Positions 9,386 to 64,000 of a stretch of DNA of 64,000 nucleotides are shown here, one piece after another. A model generated the notes under the pieces. The model ran no database searches. It worked only from the letters and a program-made list of their open reading frames with translations, and was not told where the DNA came from. A program made the position numbers and the translations under genes. Origin of the DNA: a virus (Duplodnaviria; Caudoviricetes). Location: positions 32,001 through 96,000 of IMG/VR virus record IMGVR_UViG_3300042975_000100; one strand, written 5' to 3'. Positions within the stretch are counted from its first letter, which is position 1. Every line of letters starts with the position of its first letter.

Positions 9386-10654
9386 TTATGCTACCTTTTT
9401 GCTAGCCGCCTTCTCAGCTTTCTTCTTGGATTCAGCAAGGAACTTTTCCAGCTCCTCATTGTTTACATCCTTGCGGAAGAACTGAGACCAGCTCTTGTCT
9501 CCAGTGATTGCAATGCCCCAACGAACATCGCCATAGCCGAAGAGTAATAAATTAGGATTACTGTTCGGTCCAAGATCGAGCTTATGCTCGAACTTTTCCT
9601 TATGGCCTTTCAACACAAACTCCAACTCACGCTGAATAGCCTTGAAGATCTTCGTCTTCACTGCCATGTCTACTCCGTTTAGTACCGTATCAAGAGACTC
9701 CTTGGTAATGTACTGATAAATGAACTTCGGATCGACGATTATCATCGCCGTCTTTTCGTTCTTTACGAACTTAGGCATGACGATCTTGACAAGTTCAAAG
9801 ACCATCGCCTCAAGCTTCTTCTCGTCTTCAAGCTCATTGGCTTTTTTGATGCCGGCTTTCTTGAAAGCCTTGCTGAGATTCTTGATATCGGCAAAGGCAT
9901 TTTTGACCTCCGGCTTCTTGCCAATTTCTTCCATCTCCTTCACCGTTACCCCAAGCATTTTGGCAATCTTATCGGAAATTGCAGGATCGCTGTCCAGCTT
10001 GGTCATTGCTGCTTCTACGGCTTTGAGATCGATACTATCAGCATCTTTCATACCGGCTTTGTCATCGGCCTTTGATTTTTCATCGAAGATAAGATGCATG
10101 ACGTCCAACTTTGTTGGAGCGCCACCGTGAACCTGCTGGAATCCAGCCTTATCATCTTTATGAGAGACGATAACCTCCCTGGACGTTTCAATACCCTCTT
10201 TCCAGAGATTGAATTCGTCCATGGTTTTAAATTCCTTGACTCCGGATGGGAGGTTCACAGTAACCTTTCCAGTCTTTTTGTCAAGATGGCATTTAACCTT
10301 CTCCGTCTTTTTAGACGGTTCAGGCTCTTCCTTCTTTTCGATGTCTACCATCGTCGGAAGGAACTGCTTAAGTGATTTCTCAAACAGTTTCAATGCCGGG
10401 TTATTCTTTGAGGAAATAATGTCATCTCCATCAAAGATTTTAGATTCCGATCCAAGCTGAACCTGCTCGAACCCCTCGATTCCTTTCCATACATGGATAG
10501 GAACCACCCAGCCATTACACATGGCTTTAATAGCATCCTTGCTAAAATACCATCCTGCTTTTGCATACTCTGTGAAGGAACCGCCATCGATTCCTTTTAC
10601 TGCTTCCAGATATGCTGCGATCTCTTTTTCGTTTTTCTTTACCATTGTTGACAT
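9386..10654 (-). CDS. Lys-rich hypothetical early protein
   Basis: RBS ggagg; early promoter at 10710; contains the KLDVMHLI motif. Confidence 0.7.
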   Translation of the reverse strand: MSTMVKKNEKEIAAYLEAVKGIDGGSFTEYAKAGWYFSKDAIKAMCNGWVVPIHVWKGIEGFEQVQLGSESKIFDGDDIISSKNNPALKLFEKSLKQFLPTMVDIEKKEEPEPSKKTEKVKCHLDKKTGKVTVNLPSGVKEFKTMDEFNLWKEGIETSREVIVSHKDDKAGFQQVHGGAPTKLDVMHLIFDEKSKADDKAGMKDADSIDLKAVEAAMTKLDSDPAISDKIAKMLGVTVKEMEEIGKKPEVKNAFADIKNLSKAFKKAGIKKANELEDEKKLEAMVFELVKIVMPKFVKNEKTAMIIVDPKFIYQYITKESLDTVLNGVDMAVKTKIFKAIQRELEFVLKGHKEKFEHKLDLGPNSNPNLLLFGYGDVRWGIAITGDKSWSQFFRKDVNNEELEKFLAESKKKAEKAASKKVA

Positions 10655-10749
10655 AATTAACCTCCTATAAATATACAGTTTACTTATACTATTGATCATC
10701 GATCACTGTTATAATATATCATTGAAATTAATTACTCTTACAAATTATC

Positions 10750-11010
10750 TTATGCATCTACAAGAGCGAATTCTACACTTACTTTACTAAGTTTAACAGA
10801 AACGTAAATCTTAGTTTGACGCAGTTCAGTAATCAAAGTAAGGGGTGTATTTTCCCTCATATAGATGGCAGCCTCATTATCGATATTCTCATCTTTGATC
10901 AGAAGTTCATTAGCAAGTTTAATTACTTTATTAGCTCTGATTAATCTCCATGCATTTCTGGTATTAAGCTGTCTCATAAGCTCAGCTAGTAGATCGAACT
11001 TTTCTTTCAT
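10750..11010 (-). CDS. Hypothetical protein
   Basis: ORF with G-rich RBS. Confidence 0.55.
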   Translation of the reverse strand: MKEKFDLLAELMRQLNTRNAWRLIRANKVIKLANELLIKDENIDNEAAIYMRENTPLTLITELRQTKIYVSVKLSKVSVEFALVDA

Positions 11011-11088
11011 TTCTATTCCCCCTGGATATAGACAATAAGTACCCCATATCCAATTAAGGATATGGGGTATTATCTTGCTTTGTGTGGA

Positions 11089-11358
11089 TTAAAGGTACTT
11101 CTTAATGATCAGTACATAAGCCGGGTCCATGTACTCAGATTTGATCATTTTCTTCAGGAACTTCTTACCATTCGTAAGCTCAGCGATATGCTTTGCTTTC
11201 ATGGAAACAAGTCCATTTACATTCGGACGAACAACAAGCTTCAGAAGAGTATCCTGAGCTTTTGCAAGAGCAAGGTGCTCTTCAACCCGTACACGGTTAG
11301 CAGCGCTCTCAGCCAAATATTCGTCGAGTGCTTTCAGAAAATCTGCTTTCTTAGCCAT
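11089..11358 (-). CDS. Small basic hypothetical protein
   Basis: RBS ggagg; terminator hairpin at 11041-11070. Confidence 0.65.
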   Translation of the reverse strand: MAKKADFLKALDEYLAESAANRVRVEEHLALAKAQDTLLKLVVRPNVNGLVSMKAKHIAELTNGKKFLKKMIKSEYMDPAYVLIIKKYL

Positions 11359-11454
11359 TTTCTTTCCTCCATTTAAAATCAGGATATGATTTCATATCCC
11401 TTAATTTAGTAAGGGGTTATCCCCTAATTACTCTTAAGTTATAAGTTTTGTAAA

Positions 11455-13145
11455 TTATAACGTCAAAAGATTAGTGTATGGGATATTACCATTACCAAGG
11501 GTATTGATGCCTACTTCATCAGTTGGGAATCCTTTAAGATTATCATTAATGATATTATCGTAATCAATAAATCTAATGATCCATTCAGGAATAGGATCGC
11601 CAAACTGAATAGCTATTGAAGTGATTCCAGCTTTATACTCTTTAGCAGAAAGAAGTTCTACTGCTTTTTTATACATAGCAGGATCATCGTTCTTGATATC
11701 TTCTACTGTTTTCTTATCAAGTTTAGTCTTAATAATCAGAAGACTATTTCTCTTCTCAAGATCGATAGGATCGGAATCTACAGGGCGTAAGGTGTTATAT
11801 GCATATGCTGCTTTTATACCCTGAATTCTCATTGGCATTGCATATGAAGTCATTGGTTTGATCCGTGCTGGTTTATGATAAGTGGTTTCACCGCTCACCA
11901 GAGATTTGAAAATCTTCTTTTCCAGTACAGCCAAGCTGTTAAGAATCTTCATCTGATCCACACCAGTCTCAGAATCAAGAATCTCTTCAAAGAGAATTCT
12001 CTTAAGCTCATCAGCAGTTGACTTAGGTGTACCGGCTTTATCCAATTCCAATCCTGTTACCGATAATGCTGCACTCTTAGGAACCATGTTTCCTTCCTGA
12101 ACCAATGTATTAGCAGCATAATGTTTCTTTACATACGTAAGAAGGATGGACTTAAACAGGAATTCATTCTTCATAATTAATAAGCATTTTCTTCCAGGAC
12201 TGGAGGAATAATGTTTATCGCAGAAGTTACGCATGTAATCGAGAATAAGCTGACTGATGGTATATGACATAATATCTATAATCGAGCATCTGAGTCCATC
12301 TTGTGGAATAAGCTTTAGCGGTTCTACCGCACGATGAGTAGCTACAAGCTTATCGTTATAGAAATCATAGTCATAATCAAAGTCGATTAATTCCACTACC
12401 TTCTTTTTAGGCATATCTCCAAACTCATCAGCTTCTATGAGTTTAATGATATCATACTTCTGGTGCTTGATAGCCATATCAATTCCCTTAGTTTTTTCTG
12501 CTAAGAACTGATACCATGCTTCAAGAGAGATTATGCAAGAATCTGTATCTACGATCAACACTGTATCTCTCGGCATAGTCTCTATGCGATCAAGCTTATC
12601 CAAAGTGATATACTCGTAATACACATATTCTTTTACCCATGCTAAGAAGATATTCATATGATCTTTAATCTCTTCTGGAACCTTATTAGGATTCAAGAAT
12701 GGAGTTTTTAAGGTCATAAGCATAGAGACAAGAAATGAATTTACCTTTTTATTTTCACAGAACTCAAACAGATTATTCTTGTAATAGATTCTGTTCAAAT
12801 CTTCCTGTGATACTCGGCTAAGCATATCCCAGATTATCATGGCTTCCTTCTCACTCGGAACCCACATATAACCGGTTGTTGCCATTATCTTATAGAAACA
12901 CTTCGTAAGACTTATATTCTCATCGATGATATCATTGTCATTAAGCTTTCTTATTGCTTTTTCCATTCTGATATTATCGATGAATGTTACTACCTCATCC
13001 AGAGAACCAAACTGAACATTATTCGCTAAGAATGATTCAAAGAATGTAATTGATGCCGAGATAATACTCTTACCCATAGTTGTAATACTCGGCGCTACAT
13101 GTAAATTGAAGAACACCGAAGACGGTGCCCCGAACGTTCCATATA
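11455..13145 (-). CDS. Family B DNA polymerase, motif B/C half, exon 2
   Basis: Begins (L)YGTFG; contains motif C VDTDS and the KKHYA segment. Confidence 0.9.
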
Positions 13146-13550
13146 CGAAATCTTAAGATAGGTCTACTGTGGATATCCACTCATTACCTATCCCTCTATT
13201 GCTAGAGCTTGATCTTTTCGATCAATGTCGAGACTATATCTTCAACTCTAGATTCCTCTAGAGCTGGGTGGCACTTTCAACCCGTTTGGGCCGTACTTCC
13301 TTTCGGAATAGTCGTTGAACCTTCAAAAAATGTAATCTTTGAATTTGATACTGATTACAATTTAAGCTTGGCTGCTGATTGCCCATTGTACAAAGCACTT
13401 AGAGTTACTATCCCCATATGCTATCTTATAGTTTGTTTCTGCATTTCGCGACCTTTATAAGGTACTATAAGCTTTAGGACTTCCCAGCAATTCACTCACC
13501 TTTTCGACGACCCTCGCGAGCCGAAGGACCTATTGCTCTTTCGAACGTCA
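13146..13550 (-). mobile_element. Group I self-splicing intron (405 nt, no homing endonuclease ORF)
   Basis: Core elements P aattgctgggaa, Q aatcagcagc, R gttcaacgacta, S aagatatagtct; 5' exon ends in U and intron ends in G; removal restores KIDMNGLYG in frame. Confidence 0.93.
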
Positions 13551-13986
13551 AGCCATTCATATCAATCTTTGCTAACAACTGCAGCAGATTGTATTTGTTA
13601 AACATCTCCGTACCTTTAGGATACTTGAACATCTCATTCTTGTATTTGGTACGTAAGTCTGCAAGACTTTCAATGAAGTTATAGTATGGGTTTACTACAT
13701 CTCCATGTCTTGCAAAGAGAACACCATATGCAGTGATGATCGGCTTTTTACTAGATATATAATCCACCATCTGCTTAAGTGTCGATGTAACCTCTTTGTT
13801 TTTGTAGTTATTCAAGAGAGTGCAATCTGCATCCTTGAATCTCTTTTCCATAGAGAAGTCTATCACCTTTGCGATTTCATCTTCCAATAAAGATGGAAAT
13901 GCAAGTTTAAGACTTCGCATCATGACGTTTTTGTACTCTTTAAGCGGGTCGTCATCCCGCAGCCCAAGATTAAATAGTTCAGCCAT
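13551..13986 (-). CDS. Family B DNA polymerase, motif B/C half, exon 1
   Basis: Ends in the motif B start QLLAKIDMNG; exons total 436+1691=2127 nt (708 aa). Confidence 0.9.
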
Positions 13987-14097
13987 TTGTCTATGTTCCT
14001 CCTTATAATTGATTACTACCTTGTGAAGACCGGTCTAAAAAACTATAGTTACCTCCTTCAAGTATATAATATATAATAGAGATTATCATTGTTCTAA

Positions 14098-14217
14098 ATT
14101 TCAGTTATGTATAATATAAGTGAATAAAGAATATGCGACACAGAAAATCCCTCTACCACTCACAATGGTAGAGGAATATCTGCTGTCACGATTCTAGGAA
14201 GAGAGGTGACAATTGTG
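14098..14217 (+). repeat. Conserved promoter-hairpin-RBS leader, copy 1
   Basis: Closely similar to the reverse complement of 36228-36346. Confidence 0.85.
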
Positions 14218-14370
14218 AACCATTCAGAGTTCTTGCCTAATTACATAGACAAGCATGGACCTGGCAAAGATGCAAAGTTTGATTCGAAAGAATCAGCTTT
14301 CGCCAGCATGTGGGATTTAATTTCCGCTGCCCAGGCGGCTTGGAAAAAAGAAATCTCGTTATCCCTGTAA
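14215..14370 (+). CDS. 51-aa minigene (MNHSEFLPNY...EISLSL), absent from the ORF track
   Basis: GTG start 6 nt after gaggtg; open to TAA; terminator at about 14400-14432. Confidence 0.65.
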   Translation: MNHSEFLPNYIDKHGPGKDAKFDSKESAFASMWDLISAAQAAWKKEISLSL

Positions 14371-15555: not shown

Positions 15556-15620
15556 GTTTTGAATAGTATTCCAACTTCTAATTAACCTAATATAGGGATA
15601 ATAACTTAAGGAGGATAATA

Positions 15621-18873: not shown

Positions 18874-20427
18874 ATGCAGAAGCATAAATTAGAAGTTAAG
18901 CACACTTGTATTAAGATAAATAACTATGAACTAGGAGATCTTCCCAGTACAGAGAAGTTTTTCTCCATATGGGACCCTGTAAGATTTCAAGCATTTCCGA
19001 AAGGAATAAAATACGATCAAGAAACAAAGACTCTATATCTGCCTAGAGGAGCTAGCATCCCTAGGTTAGAGAAAGATTTAGGGGTAAATGCATTTATAGA
19101 TCAGAGCCATGATCCAGTACAAAGGGTAAATCCTATTATGCTCAGATATATGCCTAGAGATGATATCCAAAAACAGGGTATTCAATTTCTTCTTGGAAAA
19201 GGAGAGTATGAGTATACCGCTAGAAAGTCTCAGCTATCTGTAAATCTAGGGCCTGGGGATGGAAAGACATATCTCTCTGTTGCAGCAGCTGCATATTATG
19301 GAGTTCGTATGGCTATGATCACTTCTGCTGGTGGTTGGATAGAGCAGTGGGCAGAGCGTATCCAAGAGTATACTGATACAACGAGAGAAGAGATCTATAT
19401 AATCAAAGGTAAACCATCTATAGTTATGCTACTGAATGGAGTTCATGATATATCGAAGTACAAATTCGTACTTTGCTCTCATAATACATTAAAGTCGTAT
19501 GGCGATAAGAATGGATGGGATAAGATCGGAGAACTATTCAAGATGATGGGTATCGGGTTAAAGATATATGATGAGGCTCATCTATACTTCGATAACATTT
19601 GTTCTATAGATTTCGCTACAGATACTCTGAAGACTATATATCTTACTGCCACCCCAGCCAGAAGTGATAGAAACGAAGATAAAATATATCAAGCTGCATT
19701 CAGTAGTGTTCCGGGATTAGATTTGTTTGACGATGAGCGAGATCCTAGAACACACTATGTAGCTTTCCATTACAGTAGTAATCCATCTCCTATTGACGTT
19801 CAACGGTGCAGAGGAGCATATGGATTCTTGGCAATCAAGTATATAGATTACGTAGTCAAACGCCCTAACTTCTATGAACTATTGTTCATACTATTGGAGA
19901 TTGCTAAGACTAAAGGAAAGACTCTTATCTATATAGGCAAGGTGGATGCTATCTATCGAGTATATAATTGGATTATGTACAACTTCCCTGAACTGAATGG
20001 AATGGTTGGAATGTATCATTCTAAGATGGACCCAGAGATAAAGGAAGCTGAAAAGGAAAAGCTTATCATCTTATCTACGATAAAGTCATGTGGAGCGGCT
20101 ACTGATATCAAAGGTCTTCAGCTTACCATCAATCTGGCTAATCCTTTTAGCTCTAATGTAATTGCAAGGCAGACTCTTGGAAGGACTAGAGATAAAGGAA
20201 CTATGTACATAGACGTAGTAGATACAGGATTTGCAACTCTTAGAGGATACTATAAGCATAAGCAAGGAATATTCTCTAAGTATGCTTTAGACTTTAGAGA
20301 TGTCATCTTACGGAAAGACATGCTGCATGAAAAGTACATGCAGATGTTTGCCAATAAGATGGAATGGTATAACAAACTTTACTCTAAGGATTCAGATAAA
20401 AAGAAGAAAGTAATGCATTTAGTGTGA
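18874..20427 (+). CDS. Superfamily 2 DNA helicase (UvsW-like)
   Basis: Walker A PGDGKT, DEAH, TATP and QTLGR motifs. Confidence 0.9.
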   Translation: MQKHKLEVKHTCIKINNYELGDLPSTEKFFSIWDPVRFQAFPKGIKYDQETKTLYLPRGASIPRLEKDLGVNAFIDQSHDPVQRVNPIMLRYMPRDDIQKQGIQFLLGKGEYEYTARKSQLSVNLGPGDGKTYLSVAAAAYYGVRMAMITSAGGWIEQWAERIQEYTDTTREEIYIIKGKPSIVMLLNGVHDISKYKFVLCSHNTLKSYGDKNGWDKIGELFKMMGIGLKIYDEAHLYFDNICSIDFATDTLKTIYLTATPARSDRNEDKIYQAAFSSVPGLDLFDDERDPRTHYVAFHYSSNPSPIDVQRCRGAYGFLAIKYIDYVVKRPNFYELLFILLEIAKTKGKTLIYIGKVDAIYRVYNWIMYNFPELNGMVGMYHSKMDPEIKEAEKEKLIILSTIKSCGAATDIKGLQLTINLANPFSSNVIARQTLGRTRDKGTMYIDVVDTGFATLRGYYKHKQGIFSKYALDFRDVILRKDMLHEKYMQMFANKMEWYNKLYSKDSDKKKKVMHLV

Positions 20428-36357: not shown

Positions 36358-37098
36358 TCATCTCTGAAGAATCTTTACGATTGTGGTGACCTTGACATTT
36401 TTCTTTGGTTTGGCTACAGTATAGGAAGCATATGTATCTCTACCATACTCGGTATCCGCATACTTAATTCCTATAGAGCATGAATCACCCTTATTCATAT
36501 TTACCAATCCAGACCATACTGGAACGATATTATGACCAATAGGGATAAATCTAAGCCCTTGCTCTGCCTTTGCATTAACCGCATTCATAAAGTCTTCTCT
36601 TGTAGATACATCTTCTGAATAAGCAACTGCTACCTTATTGGTATTGGTCAATATCATAGCAGCTACCCGGCCAAAGTTAGTATCATTAAGTGCAATAGGT
36701 ATATTAGCCTTAAGAGCATTAGAAGCACTTACTACACTTAATCCTGTAGAGAATGCACCATAATCGTTTTCAAAGTTAATGAGAGTGAATCTATCAGATT
36801 CCTCTGTAGCTTCTTTGACTACTGCATGTAGATCATTGATACTGATAGCGAACATCACTCCTTGCTCTGGAGTGTTTCTCAGTATCGAAGTTCCATCTGA
36901 AATATTTGATGCATACTTGATAACTGAAAGGTTAAGATTGGACATACCCATTCCGAGCATGTCAATCTCTCCTGTTACAGCATCAGGCCAAACAAATACC
37001 AGATCCTCCTTACCAGTTTTCACCAATTTAGATCTTTCATCTAAGTTTCGTATGAAAGCAGTGTCTACGTATCTGTATGAGTTAGGTCTTGCAATCAT
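36358..37098 (-). CDS. Hypothetical protein coupled to the DNA polymerase gene (candidate accessory factor)
   Basis: ATGA overlap with the PolB N-terminal half; 246 aa. Confidence 0.6.
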   Translation of the reverse strand: MIARPNSYRYVDTAFIRNLDERSKLVKTGKEDLVFVWPDAVTGEIDMLGMGMSNLNLSVIKYASNISDGTSILRNTPEQGVMFAISINDLHAVVKEATEESDRFTLINFENDYGAFSTGLSVVSASNALKANIPIALNDTNFGRVAAMILTNTNKVAVAYSEDVSTREDFMNAVNAKAEQGLRFIPIGHNIVPVWSGLVNMNKGDSCSIGIKYADTEYGRDTYASYTVAKPKKNVKVTTIVKILQR

Positions 37099-39041
37099 TT
37101 GTTCATTACCTCTTTGATAATTCTTTTATATTCACTTTCTACGTCTTTAGGCATCTGCTGATAGATGCTGATTACTTCCTTCTTGAAGTTAGGATCTACA
37201 AGGCGCAGCGGAGTGAACTTCTCGTTATTGTGCCAGAAGCGTAATACTTCTTTCTTACCACGAGCCATTCCTTCTCGCAAACCATGAGCAGAGTTATGAG
37301 TTTCAAAGTATTCATGCACATCATTCATCATTTCTTCGAATGAAGCTAGATGGAACCAGCGATGTCCAAAGCTAATATAATCACATGCACAATAGTCTTC
37401 GAAGAATGCAGTGGTTCTAAAGAACTTCGGATTGTTGCTGAGATTTTCCTTATCATGAATCTTCTTATCGATAAACATACGTCCGATCTGCCCATTGGTG
37501 CATATATTGAACTCCTGCATAATAGATGGATACAGACGTTTGTAATCGAAGTCATTTGCATTCTTTACAAGCATAATCGGCTTGCCATTAACTTTAACCT
37601 TAGGTTTATCCGTTACCTGAGTCAAAGCTGCTACGAATGCACCCGGGAACTTCTCATTCGGCTTTTCTTTGAACTTGTTGCAGTTATTGCCCATAACAAG
37701 ATCATTCTCTGCAAGCATGAACTTAGAAGCTCTATTCGCAAGATACATTGTCTGACGATGAACTTTCGGATACATCGTATCATTTACAATGGCCTTATTG
37801 AAGACATAGTTGATATCTCCGGTTTTCTCTTCGATACACTTCTGAACCATGACATCCATCATATTGTATTTGATGAACGTTACGAAATCCAAATACGGAA
37901 AATCAACGATATCATTGGTAATATCATGATAGTCTAACTTTCTAGCTCCAGCTACTACTCCACCGATATAGTCCAATCCAAATGTAGCGAATGCTGACTG
38001 TCCTTTACGTCTAGATGCGAACTCGATCATCTGATCAAGATACACGCTATAAGAACTGATGTCTGCATAATCACCACGCTGAGCAAACTCTGCTTCATGA
38101 TCCTTATCAATCTTATAGTAACAATGCTTCTCTTCAAAATCTGGATGGCAAATAATATCAGCTGGATCGTATCCTAAGTTAATGAGTCTTTGAATCAGAT
38201 ATGGAATATCGAATGCCATGTTCCATGCTAAAACAAAGTCTGGCTGCAAATGATTGATGATATTGAACATACTTACCAGCATCGTAAGTTCATCATCAAA
38301 TACAACGACCTTCACTTTGATATCCTTAAGATGCATGCGGTATGCTTTCTTCCAACCACCTACATTATTAAACAGAAACTCTTTGAATTCCTGCTCCATA
38401 TTATGGCTAGCGATATACTCTTCAAACTTTGCCACCTGAGGATTATTTGAATCCCTGAATGTAAATGTATACAGAGTATTATCTACTTCATTAAACATCG
38501 AGATTGCATTTACAGGGCACTCTCCGGGCTGTGGAAAATCCCCTACCATATATCTACCATCAACCTCGATATCGAGATATGCTTTTGTAACGGGAACCGT
38601 TGGATTCTGATACTGCTCATCAAACAACTTACGATAGTAGTTGTTGATATTCATATCTGAACTCATAAGAGATGGATGCGTATGAAGAATCTGATTAGCC
38701 CTTCTATTACCACTTCTGATATTATCATAGAAGAACTCTTTCATATTCAACTCTTCTGCAATGCTCTTTTCCAAATCATGGAACGGAACTGTTATAGGAT
38801 CGCACTTCGAGCGTTCTATGAACACCTGTGGATAATCCTTCACGAATTCAGGCTTAATTTTGTAATAGGTATACTTTGGCTCTTTGATGACCTCTATACC
38901 TTTCTTTCCAGTTTCATTGTCCTTATACACTATCGTCATCGTATCTGGGTGAAGATTACCTTCCTCATCCTTACGTGGATAGTGATACATATTGTTCATA
39001 ATAGTGATATTACTGTCCTTATTATAACCTTTGATTAACAT
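37095..39041 (-). CDS. Family B DNA polymerase, N-terminal half (3'-5' exonuclease plus motif A)
   Basis: ExoI LDIEV, ExoII WNMAFDIPYL, ExoIII YNMMD, motif A DFDYKRLYPS; no motif B or C. Confidence 0.9.
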   Translation of the reverse strand: MLIKGYNKDSNITIMNNMYHYPRKDEEGNLHPDTMTIVYKDNETGKKGIEVIKEPKYTYYKIKPEFVKDYPQVFIERSKCDPITVPFHDLEKSIAEELNMKEFFYDNIRSGNRRANQILHTHPSLMSSDMNINNYYRKLFDEQYQNPTVPVTKAYLDIEVDGRYMVGDFPQPGECPVNAISMFNEVDNTLYTFTFRDSNNPQVAKFEEYIASHNMEQEFKEFLFNNVGGWKKAYRMHLKDIKVKVVVFDDELTMLVSMFNIINHLQPDFVLAWNMAFDIPYLIQRLINLGYDPADIICHPDFEEKHCYYKIDKDHEAEFAQRGDYADISSYSVYLDQMIEFASRRKGQSAFATFGLDYIGGVVAGARKLDYHDITNDIVDFPYLDFVTFIKYNMMDVMVQKCIEEKTGDINYVFNKAIVNDTMYPKVHRQTMYLANRASKFMLAENDLVMGNNCNKFKEKPNEKFPGAFVAALTQVTDKPKVKVNGKPIMLVKNANDFDYKRLYPSIMQEFNICTNGQIGRMFIDKKIHDKENLSNNPKFFRTTAFFEDYCACDYISFGHRWFHLASFEEMMNDVHEYFETHNSAHGLREGMARGKKEVLRFWHNNEKFTPLRLVDPNFKKEVISIYQQMPKDVESEYKRIIKEVMNK

Positions 39042-40701: not shown

Positions 40702-41658
40702 ATGAAAAAGAAAGAAGTTATGCATCTCGTTCCTGAAAAAAATGAGAAGCGCGAAGATAGTGGATTTGGATTTAATGCATCTTCATTGGTTGGAGATGGA
40801 GACGCTCTTCCTGCATTAGAAACCAATGAGCCGGCTAAAAAGAAGAGAGGCCGTCCACGTAAAGAAGATAATGGTGATGGATTCACTGTAGCTAAAAAAG
40901 CTGATCCGAATCCTATCAATTCTGATATGCCTTACGATCAAACGTATAAACAGAATATGATGATGATGTCTGGTACAGTTGCTCAGATCGATGGTCTGAG
41001 TTCACAACTTATGCAGGATCTTGGAGCTGTACGTAACTTACGTAATAGCTTTAAGAAGTATGAGTATATGGGAACAATCGCAGGAGCAGTTACTAGTCTT
41101 ATCGGTAATAAGATCAGCGCTGTGCGAGAGATGAACAGCGTTATCACAAAGTGCCATGACCTTGAGCTTAAGCGTGCTAAGGAGCTTAAAGCCGGAGTGG
41201 ATGACGGTGATGATGATAAGAGACTCATGGATCTCTACTCTGCATTTATCAACAATCCGATGGGTAACCCTGGAGCGAGCATGCCATATGCTAATGTATC
41301 TCAGGCTGATCTTATGTCTGTTGGTGCTAGAGCAAATACCACGAATCTGTTCTCACAGAATGAAGACCCGGGATTTACTCGCTATGAACAGAATCTTACC
41401 CCTCAGCAGAATGCAATGCTGAATGAGGGCAATCCGAACATTGAGACTGTTCTTGTATATGATCAGAGCACACAGGATAAGTATTTTGAGGTAATCGATA
41501 AGAGTACCGGAATGCCTATTCCTAATATGCCTACACCTGGAGAGTTTATCCTTGAAGGATGCGTGCCAGATGTAGTACGTGGCATTGCACGTAACTCAGA
41601 CTTCAATCAGAACTTCCCATTGAAGCTCGTTGGACAACGGGCAGCAAACGAGTATTAA
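40702..41658 (+). CDS. AT-hook-containing coiled-coil protein
   Basis: KKKRGRPRK AT-hook; late promoter at 40664; N-terminal KKEVMHLV motif. Confidence 0.65.
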   Translation: MKKKEVMHLVPEKNEKREDSGFGFNASSLVGDGDALPALETNEPAKKKRGRPRKEDNGDGFTVAKKADPNPINSDMPYDQTYKQNMMMMSGTVAQIDGLSSQLMQDLGAVRNLRNSFKKYEYMGTIAGAVTSLIGNKISAVREMNSVITKCHDLELKRAKELKAGVDDGDDDKRLMDLYSAFINNPMGNPGASMPYANVSQADLMSVGARANTTNLFSQNEDPGFTRYEQNLTPQQNAMLNEGNPNIETVLVYDQSTQDKYFEVIDKSTGMPIPNMPTPGEFILEGCVPDVVRGIARNSDFNQNFPLKLVGQRAANEY

Positions 41659-48055: not shown

Positions 48056-50200
48056 TTAGATGGTCTTAAGCATCTTGCTAAATTCGTCTAAGAACTCTTC
48101 TCTTTCCATGATCTCTGCATCTTTGTCAGCATTTCCGATAGCTATAATGCGATACTCACCATTTGCATTCTTAAATGCCTTGGTAAAGAACTTATCTTTA
48201 TCTAGTGGGACATCGCATTTGAGCTGAACCTCATCATCTGTACTTTCATAGCCACAAGAATTAAGGCAGAACTTAATCCCCATAGCAGCCTGCTTCGCAC
48301 TATCCAAGGATACATTGTAGAAGCGCGTCTTATCTTTATTGGTGATAAAAGCAAACTTAACGGTATCCCCAAATTTATCGAAGCCAAATTCCTGATTCAG
48401 CCGTTCTCTTTGCAATCTAACTGAATTCATCTTGAACTTTCTAGAAGCAACAGAATCAGAAATACATTTCGTCATATAGCTTACAGCACAGATAAGATCA
48501 TTCTTTTCCATAAGCTCGTCTTCATCTGAGCATGCAGCCAAAAGTAAGATCTTATTATCATGGAATTCGTCCTCATAGGTTCTGACTAAGAATCCATTTG
48601 GATTGTTGAATTTATTAGTAGAGGCATTCGTCTCTACAATATTCTTGTATCCATATGATTCCAGTGTAAGATCAAGTATGAAGATAATGGACTTTGCATC
48701 TTCAATACTAACAGGATAGAATTCAAGTTTGTCATTTGGATAATCCATTAGAGCAAACTTAACCTTGTCCGTTCCCATCTTTTCAGGATCGAATTTTTCT
48801 TGGACTTTAGAAGGAGACTCTTTTGGATCTGCCTCCATATTGCTATCAGATTTGTTGATAGTTCTATCCCGTCTATAGGGAGGGCGAGTCTGAATCTTCC
48901 CTTTTTCATCATAGCTAATAGTGGAATTTACGTAGTTAGCATCGATAGCGTCAATAACTTCTGTTATTGTTAATACAGGATAAAACCTAATATCTTGTGA
49001 TGCTGTCTTCGTAAAAATGATCTTTAAGCTATGGTGCTCAGGATCGTCGAATCCAATAGTTGTACCATTTGCCTCGCCATACATCTTTTGTAGAGTTTCT
49101 TTGAATTTATCCATCTCATCATAAAGAATAATAAAACTGCTTGTATTGATACTAGTGCCATCTTTGTCGCACAAGCTATACAATCCAGAGATTACGGATT
49201 TCGTGTAACTCTCCTCTTTCTCCAGAGTTTCAAACATGCTAGCCTTGATGTCATTAACTATCTTGGTTATGGGTTCTTTCTTATCCCCCTTATCATTTAC
49301 AGAGTTTGCTTCTACTACATCTAATTTCCTTTTTATGGATTCAACAGACAATGCACCACCCCCAGCGATGATATCAATTTCTGTAACCAGACTATCACAC
49401 GTTCTAGCAACCAAGCAGATATCTTCTACCATCTCAGCTGGAGTCTTTCCAAACTCATTGATAGGATGCTCTTCTTTGATCACCTCAATATCCAATGAGA
49501 TTTTATTGTGCTTATACTCTATAACCGCTGAGCCTTTCCCGCTGAGAAACCAAGTCCCGAATTTTGTATTCAGTTCTTTTTTAGCATCGATGGTCTCGCA
49601 TCTAAGATAATACTCAGAACGAGTCAGTAATCTAGGTGCATGGTTAGTAATATTCAGTGAGAAACCAACGATAACCTTTGTATGGGTGTACGAATCATCT
49701 TTAGGAATGATGGTTTTGCTTGGATCTTCTTCCTTATAGTTATTCAGTTGACTTGCCTGAATATGCATGATTACTCCATACTTTGATTTGAATACGACAG
49801 TCTTGATTCCTGCATTCTTGATCATACGCTTACAGAGCAGGCATGGCGCTCCAGATGCCAACGTGCCATCTGCATTCTCTCCATAGATATAAATGGTAGA
49901 ACCAATCATACGCTGTTTAGTACAATTGATGATAGCATTCTGCTCTGCATGTACGGCTTTACAGAGTTCGTATCTTTCTCCTTTTGGTACATGGAGTTCT
50001 TCACGTTTGCACTCTCCATGATCAGAGCAATTCTCTTCTCCCACCGGAGAGCCATTGTATCCACTAGATACAATGGCATTTGACGTATCAACAATAACTG
50101 CACCGTATTTACGGCGCAGACAAGTGGATCTCATAGAAATTGCTTTTGCTACATTCAAGAAATATTCGTCCCATGATGGGCGTGCTGCTGTTGTTTTCAT
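48056..50200 (-). CDS. dCMP deaminase fused to a long C-terminal region of unknown function
   Basis: RPSWDEYF, RSTC.RR..GAV, GYNG, HAEQNA and PCLLC in the first about 150 aa. Confidence 0.85.
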   Translation of the reverse strand: MKTTAARPSWDEYFLNVAKAISMRSTCLRRKYGAVIVDTSNAIVSSGYNGSPVGEENCSDHGECKREELHVPKGERYELCKAVHAEQNAIINCTKQRMIGSTIYIYGENADGTLASGAPCLLCKRMIKNAGIKTVVFKSKYGVIMHIQASQLNNYKEEDPSKTIIPKDDSYTHTKVIVGFSLNITNHAPRLLTRSEYYLRCETIDAKKELNTKFGTWFLSGKGSAVIEYKHNKISLDIEVIKEEHPINEFGKTPAEMVEDICLVARTCDSLVTEIDIIAGGGALSVESIKRKLDVVEANSVNDKGDKKEPITKIVNDIKASMFETLEKEESYTKSVISGLYSLCDKDGTSINTSSFIILYDEMDKFKETLQKMYGEANGTTIGFDDPEHHSLKIIFTKTASQDIRFYPVLTITEVIDAIDANYVNSTISYDEKGKIQTRPPYRRDRTINKSDSNMEADPKESPSKVQEKFDPEKMGTDKVKFALMDYPNDKLEFYPVSIEDAKSIIFILDLTLESYGYKNIVETNASTNKFNNPNGFLVRTYEDEFHDNKILLLAACSDEDELMEKNDLICAVSYMTKCISDSVASRKFKMNSVRLQRERLNQEFGFDKFGDTVKFAFITNKDKTRFYNVSLDSAKQAAMGIKFCLNSCGYESTDDEVQLKCDVPLDKDKFFTKAFKNANGEYRIIAIGNADKDAEIMEREEFLDEFSKMLKTI

Positions 50201-55593: not shown

Positions 55594-55893
55594 TTATTTC
55601 TCCTCCTCTACATACCCAACTCCCACATTCTTATCCTGCAAGATAGGAGCCTGAGTAGGTTCACCTTTAAAGCCAACTGGCTCTAACCCTCTTACAGTTA
55701 AATGCATAGGAGTGCTGTGCCCACATATAGGGCATACCAATTTGTAGTGAATCTCGTTTTTCAACTCAGCTTGAATCCAAGCTGTATCAGATACTTTATA
55801 TGCTGCATATGCAGATTTCATCAAGATCTTTTCATGATGACATCTTGGGCATACAGCAAATCTGTTTAATGTAATAGCAGTATGCTTTTCCAT
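55594..55893 (-). CDS. Zinc-ribbon protein
   Basis: CPRC...CPICG. Confidence 0.7.
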   Translation of the reverse strand: MEKHTAITLNRFAVCPRCHHEKILMKSAYAAYKVSDTAWIQAELKNEIHYKLVCPICGHSTPMHLTVRGLEPVGFKGEPTQAPILQDKNVGVGYVEEEK

Positions 55894-55907
55894 TATTCTT
55901 TCTCCTT

Positions 55908-56491: not shown

Positions 56492-56494
56492 AAC

Positions 56495-58944: not shown

Positions 58945-59609
58945 TCAGATTCCTCCCCATCTTCACCTGATGCGGCATTAGGTGCGGTGATCCTTGTCTT
59001 CAGCACTTTGTTCATTGGATTCACGCATCCAGGTTTATCTGTAATGGTGATATCAACGTCCAAATCATATGCTGTAGCAAGACTTGTGAGTTTCTTGAGT
59101 GTGATACCCTTATTCTTCTTAGACGTAATAAGACGCATGCAGTTACTAAAGTCACTGCCGAGTCTCTGTCTGTAAGATTCAGGATCGATAGCCTTTGCTC
59201 CTAATGCTTCTTTGATAAGCTTAAGAGCAGGCGAATCATTAGGATCTATGTACGGCTCAAGCACATTATCCTTCGTAGTAAGACGAGCTGTCTCGTCATT
59301 TGCCAACTGATCCTTTTTCTTGATCAGTTCAGCATAAGATTTTGAATCGCTGAAATTGATAACTCTATCTTCAGAGTAATCTTTCATACGCTCCTCTGGC
59401 GGTTTCGTATATACAGACATGCAACCTGCATCTACAACACCGGGAAGACCTTCGGTAAATCTAGGTCTAATAGGATAAACAATCCCGTCTTTAGCAACAC
59501 ATGTGTTTTCAAACATTGGCTCATTGAATTGCTTACGGCGGATATATTCATCTTCAGATATGACATCCATAGTTGTATTATTGATAAATACCTGTCTAAT
59601 ATCGTCCAA
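58941..59609 (-). CDS. Putative HTH DNA-binding protein
   Basis: C-terminal ITLKKL..LA..YDLDV.I.I Xre-like segment. Confidence 0.5.
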   Translation of the reverse strand: MDDIRQVFINNTTMDVISEDEYIRRKQFNEPMFENTCVAKDGIVYPIRPRFTEGLPGVVDAGCMSVYTKPPEERMKDYSEDRVINFSDSKSYAELIKKKDQLANDETARLTTKDNVLEPYIDPNDSPALKLIKEALGAKAIDPESYRQRLGSDFSNCMRLITSKKNKGITLKKLTSLATAYDLDVDITITDKPGCVNPMNKVLKTRITAPNAASGEDGEESD

Positions 59610-59709
59610 TTAGATTCCTCCTAAAAAAATCAATCTGCAAGGTTTTTTATTAAAAAAATACAGGAGAGGAAGATTGCTCTTCCTCTCTTATATTTTTACA
59701 TAACCTTAC

Positions 59710-60327
59710 TTAAGCTGCTGCTTCAGCTTTCTCATTGACTTTATCATCCTTGACATGCTGCTTCAGAACTTCCATCGGCGTGATCGTGATATAGACCTTC
59801 TCGCCATCATGCTCTGCCGTAGCTTTGAAGAAGTCATCATATACCAATACCGGATCGATATCGACATTGTTGATCATATAAGTCTTGATTGCTTCTGCAC
59901 ATGCACACAGGATATCGCAGAGGAAATCCTTGCCATTTACAGTCTCAAGGCAAATGCCATAATTGTTCAGGCCAAAATCAGCCAGCATATAATGGAAAAC
60001 CTGGTCGCTCAAGCCAGCAATGTTTTCCTTCGGAATGTCTTTCATATCTTCTTCGTTGAACGTGAAAGTCAGGGAGAAGCTATCCCCATCTTCGCTTTCA
60101 TTGCTCTCAACGTACGCACCAAAGTAGAATGCGTCATTCTGGAAATCACGGATCTGACAACCCATCGTCTGACCCTTTTTCTTTACAACTCCGAGGTATT
60201 TCGCAACGCCCTCAAAGAGCATGCGAACGCAACGCCAGGAGAAACGAACGTCCCAGGTGCAGCTCTTTTCCTCGTCCATAATTTTCATAATCTGTGCATC
60301 AATGTTCGTGTCTTTGTACTGTTTCAT
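59710..60327 (-). CDS. Hypothetical acidic protein
   Basis: RBS aaggag; early-type promoter at 60396. Confidence 0.65.
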   Translation of the reverse strand: MKQYKDTNIDAQIMKIMDEEKSCTWDVRFSWRCVRMLFEGVAKYLGVVKKKGQTMGCQIRDFQNDAFYFGAYVESNESEDGDSFSLTFTFNEEDMKDIPKENIAGLSDQVFHYMLADFGLNNYGICLETVNGKDFLCDILCACAEAIKTYMINNVDIDPVLVYDDFFKATAEHDGEKVYITITPMEVLKQHVKDDKVNEKAEAAA

Positions 60328-60447
60328 GTCGTAAACACTCCTTAAATGAATTAGAATTTGATTCAAGACATCATAAGATATCTTGCCTTCACCTATATGA
60401 TATATAGTTATTCTTAAGTTTACCACCCGTTAATTTTTTACAAGCGG

Positions 60448-62772
60448 TTAGAACCCTGCCGGCCTCGGCATAGATTCCCACAGAACTTCTGGAGTAACTA
60501 TTCTACAGGTCTTTGTATTGATCTTGGAAAGCTTGCTGGATTGAAATCCTACGTATGGAACTACAAGGATATCTGTCTTCTTAGTGACACCTTTCTCTCC
60601 AGATGCATCGAACGTTCCAAGAGCGTTCAATGCCTCGACCAATTTAGAGTCTCTGCAGCCAGTAAATCGTACAATGACTTTGGCTGTATAATCTCCATAT
60701 GATCTTTGAATATTATCCATACATGCGATGGTTTTAAGATCATCCATGAACGCCTTGCGCTCATTTACAACGGTTAATGCTGCTGTTTCCCCAATACCTT
60801 TGATAGTCATCAAGGCGTTGTAAAGTTCATTCTCTTCTGCATCCATGATATACTCTAAGGATACATCCTTAAGAATAAGCTTCCATTTCTCTGCACTAAG
60901 ATTAGAGAAACCAAGCGCGCCTATTACCCGATTATCAGGATAAGGCTTTGTTTTCAGCTCTTCTACCCGTGCAAAGAATTTCTTCGTCATAACCTCACCG
61001 ATTACCGCACATGCCTTATCATAATCCAGATTGAAAAGATCACTAAACGATCTGAGATTCAATGATACTACATATGCCTCGCCAAAGTCCTTGAAGTTAA
61101 GTTTCTTAAGCATGTTAGTTACACGCTTAACCATACGTCCATCACAATCCATATTAGGACAATATGCTGTATCTCCAGTATCTGATACCATTAAGGATGT
61201 CCCACATACTGGACATACTTCAGGAAATGGAATCTTAGGTCCTTTTGGTATTGCATTCTCTGCTATATTAGGCTTGGTAAGATACACGATTACATCATGC
61301 CTATACTCAAGCTCTACAACGTCACCGATATGCAGATCCATCTGGTTAAATTTCTTAAACGAATGAATCGTAGTTTTCGGATGAATAGTACCAAAGAACT
61401 CTACTGGATTGAAATACGCCATTGGTGTGATGCTACCATCCTGTCCTACGGTGAATTCACAACCGGTAATAATGCTTCTCTTCTTCATAGCTGAGAACTT
61501 GATCGCAATAGCCCATTTGTTTACAGAGTTGATTCGTCCCAATGCCTGCTTAGCAATCGGATTAGTATACTCAATAACTACTCCATCATACATAAATGGA
61601 ATATAGGGCCTCATTGCTTCTGCTTCTTTAGCAAACTTACTTACCATATACAATCTATTCATATAATCCCCATGAATCATTGCATACCGCAAGTCTACAC
61701 CAGAGCTATAATACTTATTCAAGAAATTGATCTCTACCTCTCTATCAATTCCAAGACCTCCAGTACAGATTGGTACAAGCGTCATATAGTCTCTGAATCT
61801 TCTGGCATCATCTCTACCGGTTAACCCGATAATAGCTGTTCTACCATTTACATAAGTCATACCGGTATCCGCAGCAAGCTTATTGAGCATAGGGAATGTG
61901 ATGATGCATTCGAATTTAATACCGAATACCATCTTATCATTTATCTCTGGATAACCACAAGCTCTTTGGAATACATAGCCTCCAAAGATATGCGTCAAAT
62001 CCTGAGCCTCATCATTTCCCGTATCTCCTCTCGACCTTGCAGATACAATCTTGTTACCCTGGATCTGGGCTTCAACAGAAATACCATCATACTTCAAAGT
62101 CGCACACATATCAGGGAAGTCGAATCCCATCTGACGATGAGCCATCATAAAGTCTCTTTCAAAGATAGCTACTTTTTGTTGACTATCATTAGGATCTACT
62201 CCATGCATAACTGCATCATTGATAAGGGTAAACTTACATTTGTCAAGCGTACCAACTAACTCTGGATACTCGTGTGCAACCGCTCTGCCCTTTTTGTTAG
62301 GCTTATCATAGTGCTGTACATCTTGTACTTCGAAGTCGCTAGCACGAACGTTAAATGTATTCCCAGTGATATTCTTGAAGAAGAATCCATCCGTATCAGC
62401 TAAATGCATAGCTGTAACCTTTCCAGTTACATGCTGTTCATAGCTGTCAGGACCTGCAGCCTTTCTCTGCGGGAATACTACCGGTGTTGCTCCTACAGGA
62501 GACATACCACCCGTAACTTTGTTATACTTCGTTACGGCTAAATCATACACTCCATCTTCTAATGGAAGCATAGTTCGATCTGTATTATTGTACAGGATAT
62601 TTGAGATAACCAGTACATCATACATATCTTTTGTCATTTGTTCCGTTGGCTCTGAATTTATAAAATTCATAGTCAATTCATTAAGGTAAGAACTTAGCTG
62701 AGGAGTAATCATCCGTAAAGATGCTTTCTCTAAATCAGCTATAACCTCCTTAAGATTTATATTCACTTTCAT
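60448..62772 (-). CDS. ligA: NAD-dependent DNA ligase
   Basis: KYDG adenylation motif, SRGD, DGVVI, WAIAIKF, OB fold, CPVC..CPN.DC Zn finger, HhH, BRCT (FTG...GVTKKT). Confidence 0.95.
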   Translation of the reverse strand: MKVNINLKEVIADLEKASLRMITPQLSSYLNELTMNFINSEPTEQMTKDMYDVLVISNILYNNTDRTMLPLEDGVYDLAVTKYNKVTGGMSPVGATPVVFPQRKAAGPDSYEQHVTGKVTAMHLADTDGFFFKNITGNTFNVRASDFEVQDVQHYDKPNKKGRAVAHEYPELVGTLDKCKFTLINDAVMHGVDPNDSQQKVAIFERDFMMAHRQMGFDFPDMCATLKYDGISVEAQIQGNKIVSARSRGDTGNDEAQDLTHIFGGYVFQRACGYPEINDKMVFGIKFECIITFPMLNKLAADTGMTYVNGRTAIIGLTGRDDARRFRDYMTLVPICTGGLGIDREVEINFLNKYYSSGVDLRYAMIHGDYMNRLYMVSKFAKEAEAMRPYIPFMYDGVVIEYTNPIAKQALGRINSVNKWAIAIKFSAMKKRSIITGCEFTVGQDGSITPMAYFNPVEFFGTIHPKTTIHSFKKFNQMDLHIGDVVELEYRHDVIVYLTKPNIAENAIPKGPKIPFPEVCPVCGTSLMVSDTGDTAYCPNMDCDGRMVKRVTNMLKKLNFKDFGEAYVVSLNLRSFSDLFNLDYDKACAVIGEVMTKKFFARVEELKTKPYPDNRVIGALGFSNLSAEKWKLILKDVSLEYIMDAEENELYNALMTIKGIGETAALTVVNERKAFMDDLKTIACMDNIQRSYGDYTAKVIVRFTGCRDSKLVEALNALGTFDASGEKGVTKKTDILVVPYVGFQSSKLSKINTKTCRIVTPEVLWESMPRPAGF

Positions 62773-62839
62773 CACCTCATGAATATAATATATACTTGCA
62801 AAAAATAATAGAGGGCTGATTATACAGCCCTCCATATTT

Positions 62840-64000
62840 TTATTCCTTATCCAGGTTCCCCTTCAATGGGAGATTAGGATTAACGAGCCTCATTACACGT
62901 TCTTTGATTACTCTCTGCTTACGAACTGGCACCTCGGAGTTGATAAGCTTAGTTACATCCTTAGTTGTAAGCTCTCCAATCATCTCCTTGATAGCTTCCT
63001 TCTCACGAAGGTCATCCATGATATGAGTAATTTCAGAAGCATTCTTCATAATCTCTTCGGAATGAAGAACCTCATGCCGAATATCTTCTGGGAATGAATT
63101 GATTACCATTGCAGTGCGTGGATCTACAAGAGTCATAGCTCTCATCTTATTACGAGAACCAGATTTCTTATGATCAATCCTCTTCTTTGCAAGCTCTTTG
63201 ATCTTATCTTTCAGTCGTGGATCTACAAGAGTCATTGCTACACACTTTCTCCGATTATCAATCAGAGTCATTACAACCTGCTTGACCTTGTTACGCACTT
63301 TAAGCTTTTTGATAAAGTCAAATCGTAATCCGATTTCCTTAAGATAAACATCAACCTTCTCTACTTGTCGAGAAGTAGCATCATGAGGAATACGTACATT
63401 GCGCTGGAATGGATCACCAACCAAAAGTGTTTCGAACATACGTCTACCCTGTGGAGATGCAGACAGAAGCATCAATGTTTCAATCAACGTTTCTGCGTTA
63501 GAATGCATCATATCAAGAAACTCCATTTCACCAAAGCGTACTGGAGTGGTCGCATGCGCTGCTTTATGAAACTTATTTGCTTTGCTCTTTGTATTCTCGC
63601 TTCTGATATTCGTAGATGCCAGAGATACAGAAGAGAACTTCTCTTCAGCAAACTGCTTCAAACGCTGCGTATATTTCTTACCTACGATGATTTTGCGTCT
63701 AGCTTTAATCTGCCGCAATCCTCCACGGGAATTCTGTACAGTAACATAGAGATCTGACTGCTCAATCCATGGGAATGCTTCATACATCTCTCTGATCATA
63801 TCGATAGACATGCCAGAAGACATCGGAGGCATACACATATAGATTGCTCCATCATTGACGATAGAATCAAGATACTGTGTTCTTACATCAATTCCATTGT
63901 AATTACAGAAATCTTGATACTCTCTTGCCTGTTCCTTATTGAAGATATTCATATAAGTGAACAGCATGTTCTCGCACTGTCCGATTATACCCTGATCATC
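62840..64000 (-). CDS. Phage RNA polymerase beta-like subunit, C-terminal part (5' end lies outside the window)
   Basis: G..Y..RLKQ...KFS and PVRFGEME motifs. Confidence 0.88.
   Translation of the reverse strand, partial: DDQGIIGQCENMLFTYMNIFNKEQAREYQDFCNYNGIDVRTQYLDSIVNDGAIYMCMPPMSSGMSIDMIREMYEAFPWIEQSDLYVTVQNSRGGLRQIKARRKIIVGKKYTQRLKQFAEEKFSSVSLASTNIRSENTKSKANKFHKAAHATTPVRFGEMEFLDMMHSNAETLIETLMLLSASPQGRRMFETLLVGDPFQRNVRIPHDATSRQVEKVDVYLKEIGLRFDFIKKLKVRNKVKQVVMTLIDNRRKCVAMTLVDPRLKDKIKELAKKRIDHKKSGSRNKMRAMTLVDPRTAMVINSFPEDIRHEVLHSEEIMKNASEITHIMDDLREKEAIKEMIGELTTKDVTKLINSEVPVRKQRVIKERVMRLVNPNLPLKGNLDKE

Follow-up and report, generated by a model that had tools for sequence, protein, structure and literature searches.

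Why would helicases, a DNA polymerase, a DNA ligase, and an RNA polymerase (RNAP) subunit of a single virus all carry the same short peptide, and what might bind it? The question is raised by a 64,000-nucleotide stretch of DNA (hereafter the window), which corresponds to bases 32001-96000 of one 144,787-bp viral contig (IMGVR_UViG_3300042975_000100, hereafter G000). A sequence-only reading of the window had proposed that the motif K-x-[VA]-M-[HTR]-L-[VI] is a phage-wide docking signal for one hub protein. Our analysis bears out the docking signal and its co-evolution, and we consider it highly likely that the peptide is a functional docking motif with a co-evolving phage receptor, whereas g070, a protein predicted to fold as a sliding clamp, is a candidate for that receptor to which peptide co-folding lends weak support. 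G000 has a GC content of 0.39 and an estimated completeness of ~58% (CheckV), and encodes a terminase, a tail sheath, virion proteins, several RNA-polymerase beta/beta'-like pieces, and a B-family DNA polymerase split into an N-terminal exonuclease half (PolB-N) and a C-terminal polymerase half (PolB-C), together with a primase, a DnaB-like helicase, topoisomerase II, an NAD-dependent ligase, UvsX, and SbcC. Its nearest cultured phages are the AR9/PBS1, Staphylococcus S6-like, Listeria LPJP1, and Yersinia phiR1-37 jumbo phages, at a protein identity of only ~27-31%.

All of the motif copies that had been claimed, namely those in a superfamily 2 (SF2) helicase, an AT-hook protein (g075), the ligase, g041, the RNAP tail, and both polymerase halves, were recovered by our scans, and six-frame and open reading frame (ORF) scans placed all of the strong ones at their expected coordinates. 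The core of the proposed expression held up, but the spacing of its lysine did not, as this residue usually lies three residues before [VA], and the motif also extends into a trailing [DN]-P. In full, the consensus reads K-x-x-[VA]-M-[HTR]-L-[VI]-[DNE]-P. The core [VA]-M-[HTR]-L-[VI] occurs nine times in six G000 contig proteins versus 0.18 expected and none of 2000 within-protein shuffles matched this count. A profile of the motif yielded 13 G000 matches at ≥14 bits versus 0.23 expected, while a profile derived solely from the four RNAP copies scored the DnaB tail at 31 bits, compared to 21 for the best shuffle. At the level of sequence, the sharing of the motif between RNAP and DnaB within this genome is unambiguous.

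The motif was also found to have been rewritten in concert in a related phage. G001 (IMGVR_UViG_3300014203_000001) is a complete genome of 245,713 bp that is syntenic with G000 and has 75 proteins in common with it, with a typical identity of ~45% and a range of 25-77% as read from the ortholog table. At the G000 motif positions, G001 carries a different common peptide, approximately L-x-x-I-[AV]-[ET]-R-[VI]-P, on at least eight orthologs (those of the SF2 helicase, g075, g125, ligase, PolB-C, PolB-N, g031, and g090), which means that conservation among orthologs takes the form of a retained position with a sequence that has changed in concert. The SF2 helicase ortholog ends in RIIAERVRVL immediately before its stop codon, the g075 ortholog begins with MAELLEIATRVP versus MKKKEVMHLVP in G000, and the g031 and g125 orthologs both have the motif at their N-ends. 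The G001 ligase has KLLEIATRVQ at residue 109 (the G000 copy is at 139), PolB-C has ELLNIVERVD at the aligned place just before a common DYDYD stretch, the PolB-N tail has LLQIAERH where G000 has weak copies, and the g090 ortholog h258 starts with MTELLQIAERNK in the same place as a degenerate G000 copy. Copy number is three in the G001 DnaB tail and four to five in its RNAP beta-C tail. Alignment of the ortholog pairs places the two versions in the register V/I, M/A, T-H/E-T, L/R, V/V, and then D-P/P. When a G001 profile was trained only on the DnaB and RNAP tails, seven further matches were obtained at ≥14 bits versus 0.37 expected, with shuffles giving two at most. Five of the seven have G000 orthologs, four of which (helicase, g075, ligase, and g031) are motif bearers whose copy occupies the matching terminus or position, while the fifth, g131, has a degenerate copy; the hypergeometric probability of this overlap is ~2e-5 by hand calculation. 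A motif that is rewritten jointly on approximately ten proteins implies a single, fast-evolving, phage-encoded receptor.

Similar tails were seen among more distant relatives. Homolog searches returned 1,519 DnaB proteins at E ≤1e-20 and 1,241 RNAP beta-C proteins at E ≤1e-30, i.e., more than 1,200 each and not all necessarily of this clade. Among the 120 DnaB and 70 RNAP tails that were listed and inspected by eye, most extend past the conserved core with lineage-specific short hydrophobic motifs, often in 2-6 copies. Related loci were recovered using the DnaB protein and later a DnaB alignment as query, whereas the RNAP protein alone recovered none; a megablast search of phages with the helicase-terminase region also gave no match. 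The comparison was extended to five more jumbo-phage genomes of 229-342 kb (G002-G006), all complete or nearly so, at four sites, namely the DnaB tail, the tail of the non-virion RNAP (nvRNAP) beta-C subunit, the PolB-N tail, and the g075-like N-end. By eye, each genome apparently has its own version of the motif on some or all of these sites, which is clear in G003 (V-[IV]-x-R-[VI]-P) and G005, while G002, G004, and G006 are weaker cases that are not individually convincing by a best-7-mer score. This score prefers same-genome tail pairings, as only 43 of 5040 permutations reach the observed value, although the measure is noisy. The g075 orthologs beside PolB-N in G001, G002, G003, G005, and G006 all begin with the motif of their own genome. 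The most extreme multivalency was seen in the G005 RNAP beta-C protein (locus L102, 1330-3558, minus strand), the tail of which ends in five to six head-to-tail QKMLFExxP repeats. In G001, the motif also occurs on an HNH_3/AP2-type homing endonuclease, h217 (locus L018, 9715-10683), whose C-end is a full G001-type copy, VSRIIAERVN; h070 (locus L010, 19222-19866), which resembles h217 at its N-end and has no Pfam family, has a weaker terminal copy, ICERVPIK. Mobile endonucleases seem to borrow the phage docking tag.

Could the pattern simply be the product of chance, compositional bias, or in-frame read-through of a DNA repeat? The regular expression was defined post hoc, after the data were seen, and an exact count of 4-of-5 words fails to beat shuffles. 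The raw top words in that count were composed of common residues, and VMH.V, first by Poisson rank, had a p of 3.7e-6 that was no better than that of the best shuffled word (median 4.5e-6), as the motif is too degenerate for an exact-word test. Part of the core count also comes from intragenic duplication: copies 2 and 3 of the RNAP tail (window 63119-63247, minus strand) are identical over ~20 bases, ATGACTCTTGTAGATCCACG, which suggests that the motif was recently duplicated within the gene. The other copies differ at synonymous codon sites, which indicates that the signal is at the peptide level and rules out a DNA-level repeat. Moreover, the RNAP-only profile finds the DnaB tail far above its best shuffle, the G001 test replicates the result with separate training proteins, and both the listed homolog tails and the six further genomes show similar motifs by eye. 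The RNAP-only profile and the G001 replicate already contradict an origin by chance, which we regard as extremely improbable. The peptide has the properties of a short linear motif, as it recurs beyond chance, its tail and terminal copies lie outside of folded domains, and it is conserved in position among orthologs.

Within the window, the motif copies are distributed as follows. The SF2 helicase g053 (18874..20427, plus strand; phrog_16 aligned to residues 18-462 of 517) ends in KKKKVMHLV at its extreme C-end (20398-20424, plus strand, residues 509-517, by ORF scan), directly before the stop codon. The AT-hook protein g075 (40702..41658, plus strand) has its copy at residues 3-12 (40708-40737) of an N-end that begins MKKKEVMHLVP from 40702, and its residues 1-74 are predicted to be disordered, with a predicted local distance difference test score (pLDDT) of <50. 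The nvRNAP beta C-terminal subunit, g099 (62840..64000, minus strand, 844 aa and extending beyond the window end; phrog_3295 aligned to residues 25-663), has four copies in its tail (62876..63283, minus strand, by ORF scan), at 63254-63283, 63218-63247, 63119-63148, and 62876-62905. The adjacent NAD-dependent DNA ligase, g098 (60448..62835, minus strand; phrog_3869 aligned from residue 176), has KVTAMHLADT at residues 139-148 (62392-62421, minus strand, 16.2 bits), N-terminal to the conserved ligase region. The 437-aa protein g041 (9386..10699, minus strand) has two internal copies, KLDVMHLIFD (10082-10111, 20.0 bits) and EKTAMIIVDP (9728-9757, 14.4 bits); it has no Pfam or PHROG family and no G001 ortholog, and these copies, which lack orthology support, may be buried. 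A copy in g139 likewise lacks orthology support, as this protein has no G001 ortholog. PolB-N (g071, 37095..39041, minus strand) aligns to the phrog_3011 DNA polymerase over residues 7-574 of 648, and the tail past this region has three weak copies, KKEVLRF, TPLRLVDP, and KKEVISI (37164..37256, minus strand, by motif scan). PolB-C (g044, 11455..13077, minus strand), which matches the phiKZ gp050 DNA polymerase by phmmer and is 55% identical to h029 of G001, has an internal degenerate copy, KKKVVELIDF (12379..12408, minus strand), that scores only 9.6 bits in G000, while the 99-aa zinc-ribbon protein g090 (55594..55893, minus strand) has a degenerate N-terminal copy, KHTAITLNRF (55858-55887), that scores only 6.4 bits.

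Additional copies lie outside of the window. The DnaB-like helicase (locus L004, 14382-16178, minus strand) has two C-end copies, KMVVMTLVDP and, five residues later, PVMKLV at the very terminus; a 152-aa protein has KKNVMHIVDP near its N-end; and a 52-aa protein contains KHTAMTLVE. For g031, a probable TTG start restores an N-terminal copy, (M)QQTAMRLVEP. This codon (locus L002, 13877-13894, genome 31877-31894, just upstream of the window) lies 15 bases 5' of the first ATG and eight bases after a GGGAGG ribosome-binding site. Adjoining DnaB is g131 (locus L004, 16234-17370, minus strand), a 378-aa protein with no Pfam or PHROG match, which we call Mre11-like only from its HIADLHFG motif, a metallophosphoesterase-like (Mre11/SbcD-like) sequence. 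The G001 ortholog of g131 has 16 additional N-terminal residues that bear the motif, while the G000 copy is degenerate. The tail and terminal copies fall outside of the PHROG and Pfam envelopes, that of g075 in a predicted disordered N-end, in agreement with the original placement of copies at termini or in insertions. The further remark that no copy was noticed in capsid or tail proteins was also borne out, as no annotated G000 virion protein scored above noise with the motif profile. Because the tag is missing from virion proteins and the RNAP that bears it is the non-virion enzyme, a virion-packaging signal can be rejected. Known prohead proteases cut x-x-E sites; the motif is unlike these and is located at extreme termini, and a prohead-protease site was rejected as well. 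Members of the g075 family consist of the N-terminal tag, an AT-hook (KKKRGRP), a long helical hairpin, and a small C-terminal beta domain, and they always adjoin PolB-N. The g075 structure model is of low confidence (pLDDT 59.5), with BFVD matches only to uncharacterized phage proteins, including one of AR9. The family is probably an unrecognized replisome component.

The strongest candidate for the receptor is g070 (36358..37098, minus strand), a 246-aa protein whose start overlaps the PolB-N stop codon. A g070-family member overlaps or abuts the PolB-N stop in all seven genomes (G000-G006). The AlphaFold2 model of g070, made with the sequences of its relatives, has a pLDDT of 83 and a predicted template modeling score of 0.80, and its best Foldseek matches are PCNA. 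VIA-align gave Z scores of 9-10 over 185-206 residues to PCNA, 9-1-1, the beta clamp (two domains), and T4 gp45, and sliding clamps make up all 50 entries listed there, among them T4 gp45 in complex with a ligase peptide. These matches span residues 6-246, and the model contains two tandem clamp domains. No Pfam or PHROG family was assigned to g070, and neither the DnaN family (PF00712) nor the gp45 family (PF02916) was detected anywhere in G000. We count the synteny with PolB-N and, on the strength of the model, the predicted clamp fold as established. Only six relatives of g070 are detectable among 1.84 billion representative proteins, and the G000 and G001 members share ~24% identity over 82 residues, versus the ~45% typical of proteins common to the two genomes, a divergence that fits the expectation that a receptor co-evolving with its ligand should diverge fast. 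The motif type also follows clamp distance. Close relatives with clamps 56% and 36% identical to g070 keep canonical copies in the PolB-N tail, PVMRLVDP (locus L023) and PVMKLVD (locus L025), respectively, while a 25% identical clamp accompanies KTILRKVPP and KQVLRTVDP and the 24% identical clamp of G001 (locus L020, 14884-15588) accompanies the IAERVP type. No relationship of the g070 family was detected to phiKZ Rhc (gp155; hhalign probability 0.2%, no phmmer match) or to AR9 gp129, a 238-aa gene near the AR9 PolB-N (probability 0.7%), and its profile found no match in the AR9 and phiKZ genomes. Co-folding of g070 with DnaB residues 556-598 gave a median ipSAE of 0.41 (runs of 0.44, 0.41, and 0.18), compared to 0.00 for the best of three controls, with the runs agreeing in ≥22% of contacts and a partner pLDDT of ≥44. 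Of 80 solved complexes, 58 attained the mark applied here, as did 2 of 110 mismatched pairs; only 7 of the 80 complexes, and both mismatches, attained it with scores of ≤0.60. The co-fold model thus lends weak support to binding of the DnaB tail by g070. Among the hubs that had been suggested for the motif, a clamp is the best fit, and the gene at 36358-37098 does model as one, even though the peptide co-fold there is weak. On balance, we lean towards g070 as the motif receptor.

From these results, we propose that K-x-x-[VA]-M-[HTR]-L-[VI]-[DNE]-P is a short linear docking motif carried on flexible ends and linkers of the nucleic-acid machinery, and that its bearers would all bind one phage-encoded hub, the PCNA/gp45-like clamp-fold protein g070 that is encoded right after the polymerase N-half. 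The putative clients are DnaB (two copies), nvRNAP beta-C (four copies), the SF2 helicase, both PolB halves, the NAD-dependent ligase, the Mre11-like protein, and several small or unknown proteins. Polymerases, ligases, and helicases are the usual clamp clientele. Tails with one to six peptide copies would dock on the hub at replicating DNA, where the hub could serve as a tool-belt that concentrates the split polymerase, DnaB, the SF2 helicase, ligase, a nuclease, and small factors. The multivalent RNAP tail would further tether the nvRNAP to replicated templates, thereby coupling late transcription to replication; we infer these functional consequences from the motif and its predicted hub. 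There are precedents for such coupling, as late transcription of T4 is activated by the gp45 clamp with gp33 and gp55 (PMC7892883, PMC2988020), and phage Mu is reported to enlist the host beta clamp for late transcription (PMC12867686).

Several observations do weigh against this proposal. The RNAP-only profile gives VMHLV-type copies just 8-14 bits, close to noise in G000, and their validation therefore comes from orthology rather than from in-genome statistics. Topoisomerase II, the Dda helicase, UvsX, and an exonuclease have no motif copy, and the replicative DnaB helicase is not a textbook clamp client. No motif copy has the Q or the aromatic pair of the PCNA-interacting peptide (PIP) box, Q-x-x-[LIVM]-x-x-[FY]-[FY]; the motif also lacks the Q of the beta-clamp consensus QL[SD]LF, although its core x-M-[TH]-L-V resembles positions 2-5. 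In the band into which the co-fold score falls, predictions are wrong more often than not, except for pairings that were already probable. The search for a clamp loader found none: PF13177 is absent, no AAA+ protein resembles RFC, and the sole AAA protein (of G001) looks CbbX-like; a loader-independent mode similar to that of UL42 or Rhc is possible for g070 by analogy. Lastly, Rhc, the only characterized jumbo-phage clamp relative, is monomeric and binds the polymerase thumb via a surface of ~1,800 square angstroms, with no linear motif reported (PMC13648687).

These points leave room for other receptors. The docking signal could be real yet directed to another phage protein, such as a factory scaffold, an SSB-like (single-stranded DNA-binding protein-like) factor, or an import receptor or shell unrelated to chimallin, with g070 merely serving as a polymerase processivity subunit. 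The assignment of g070 relies upon fold, synteny, divergence rate, and a weak co-fold, approximately half of the genes have no known function, and G000 is incomplete enough that the hub could be off the contig. Furthermore, the tagged proteins (nvRNAP, DnaB, polymerase, ligase, and nucleases) are those that a replication compartment would have to enrich, the arrangement of copies in tandem would favor avid binding to a lattice or condensate, and chimallivirus nvRNAP import is reported to use dedicated phage factors (bioRxiv 10.64898/2026.09.21.753271). However, we identified no alternative candidate, the co-fold controls scored 0.00, and neither chimallin nor Imp1 was detected. The chimallin profile phrog_4795 found nothing at E ≤1 in G000, G001, G002, G004, and G005 (versus 1.8e-232 for the phiKZ control), while the profile phrog_3141 of the importer Imp1/PicA had no match in G000 or G001 and phmmer found none either. 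Chimallin-type nuclear import is therefore disfavored, and with it the phage-nucleus import factor that the sequence-only reading had listed among its possible hubs. We judge a different phage receptor to be a possibility, but a rather unlikely one. A host factor is also conceivable, whether the host beta clamp, a chaperone, or an adaptor that would recognize the motif as a terminal degron for a protease, with the motif versions reflecting different hosts. In its favor, x-[ML]-[ST]-L-[VF] resembles the beta-clamp pentapeptide, which also occurs at termini, the phage encodes a GroEL-like protein, the absence of any detected clamp loader makes use of host machinery conceivable, and Mu provides a precedent for recruitment of the host clamp in late transcription (PMC12867686). 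However, both the pocket of the beta clamp and its motif are highly conserved among bacteria, whereas the versions found among these related phage genomes (VMTLVDP, IAERVP, MLFExVP, and LxPVxYM) differ radically and the Q is missing. Nor would a degron be expected to recur 4-6 times in tandem or to be present on all core replication enzymes. We consider a host target improbable and retain the phage-encoded clamp-fold protein g070 as the preferred candidate receptor.

The cultured relatives do not obviously share this motif system. The best cultured match of g099 is AR9 gp089, a 665-aa protein annotated as the nvRNAP beta-C subunit, which has no tail, and phiKZ gp071 matches too. The AR9 DnaB-like helicase gp007 (locus L104, 1162-2847) ends in DSGIPF. 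The C-terminal tip of bacterial SSB is D-D-D-I-P-F, which the AR9 DnaB end recalls, and by this analogy the cultured relatives may use another terminal docking peptide. Elsewhere in the window, a 714-aa protein (48056-50200, minus strand) has an N-terminal dCMP/cytidine deaminase domain followed by a long unassigned remainder. The DNA of AR9, PBS1, S6, and phiR1-37 contains uracil, and by analogy to these relatives the G000 phage DNA may be modified as well. A tRNA scan of the window found none. Upstream of the window, the contig has a GroEL-like chaperonin gene (locus L002, 11034-12938, plus strand, genome 29034-30938; phrog_5725, E 1.5e-55).

If g070 is indeed the hub, it would fill a gap in the replisome as a stand-alone clamp-fold protein of a large uncultivated jumbo-phage clade that is distantly related to AR9, PBS1, and the Staphylococcus jumbo phages, and the motif would provide a sequence-readable list of its probable clients. 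A hard-wired multivalent docking tail on a multisubunit phage RNAP would, if true, constitute a new route for coupling late transcription to replication, analogous to T4 gp45-gp33/gp55 but built into the enzyme itself. One peptide that co-varies across approximately ten proteins also offers an unusually clean natural experiment in motif-receptor co-evolution. More speculatively, multivalent tails (4-6 copies on nvRNAP and 2-3 per DnaB protomer) together with an oligomeric clamp-like hub could form a self-organizing replication-transcription factory that replaces the phage nucleus in this jumbo-phage clade lacking chimallin, with the rapid, concerted rewriting of motif and receptor constituting a lineage-specific compatibility code, a combination that we find doubtful. 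If true, such a code would keep co-infecting relatives, and possibly host defenses or decoys, from sharing or hijacking the machinery, while tagged homing endonucleases such as h217 of G001 would exploit it to reach replicating DNA. Our literature search found no description of this motif or this clamp family. The tool-belt logic of clamp and peptide is known in kind; what is new is a stand-alone, very fast-evolving clamp in a jumbo-phage clade lacking chimallin, multivalent tags on a phage multisubunit RNAP and DnaB, and the proteome-wide concerted rewriting of these tags.

Among known systems, the closest in organization to our proposal are other clamps with peptide-bearing clients. As predicted for g070, gp45 of T4 and RB69 is a phage-encoded two-domain clamp protomer, and its clients, the polymerase (gp43 C-end), ligase, and gp33/gp55, use short terminal peptides comparable to those described here. 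The T4 clamp also ties late transcription to replication (PMC7892883, PMC2988020), and its complex with the ligase peptide (PDB 6drt) is among the top structural matches of g070. Unlike gp45, g070 has no PF02916 match and no loader was found, and the motif sequence is unrelated; the predicted docking would also differ in that the peptide is on the phage's own multisubunit RNAP subunit, in four copies, and on DnaB. PCNA with the PIP-box and the beta clamp with QL[SD]LF have the hub-and-peptide logic proposed here, similar polymerase, ligase, and helicase clients, terminal motifs, and a fold like that predicted for g070, but neither consensus is matched here, PF00712 has no match, and the present motif has been rewritten far faster than cellular clamp motifs. 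The chimalliviruses are likewise jumbo phages with a split B-family DNA polymerase (DNAP-N/DNAP-C), a DnaB-like helicase, and an nvRNAP, and their Rhc protein, an RNase H fused to a clamp-derived domain, is likewise a clamp-fold accessory protein that affects late transcription (PMC13648687, PMC13648698). In contrast to Rhc, g070 has no RNase H domain and no detectable similarity to phiKZ gp155, and in contrast to the chimalliviruses, the G000 clade has no detectable chimallin. The herpesvirus processivity factors UL42/UL44 have the PCNA fold, dispense with a loader, and are bound by the extreme C-terminal tail of the cognate polymerase (see also PMC13648687). Whereas UL42/UL44 has essentially one client, the hub proposed here would serve at least 8-10 peptide-bearing clients.

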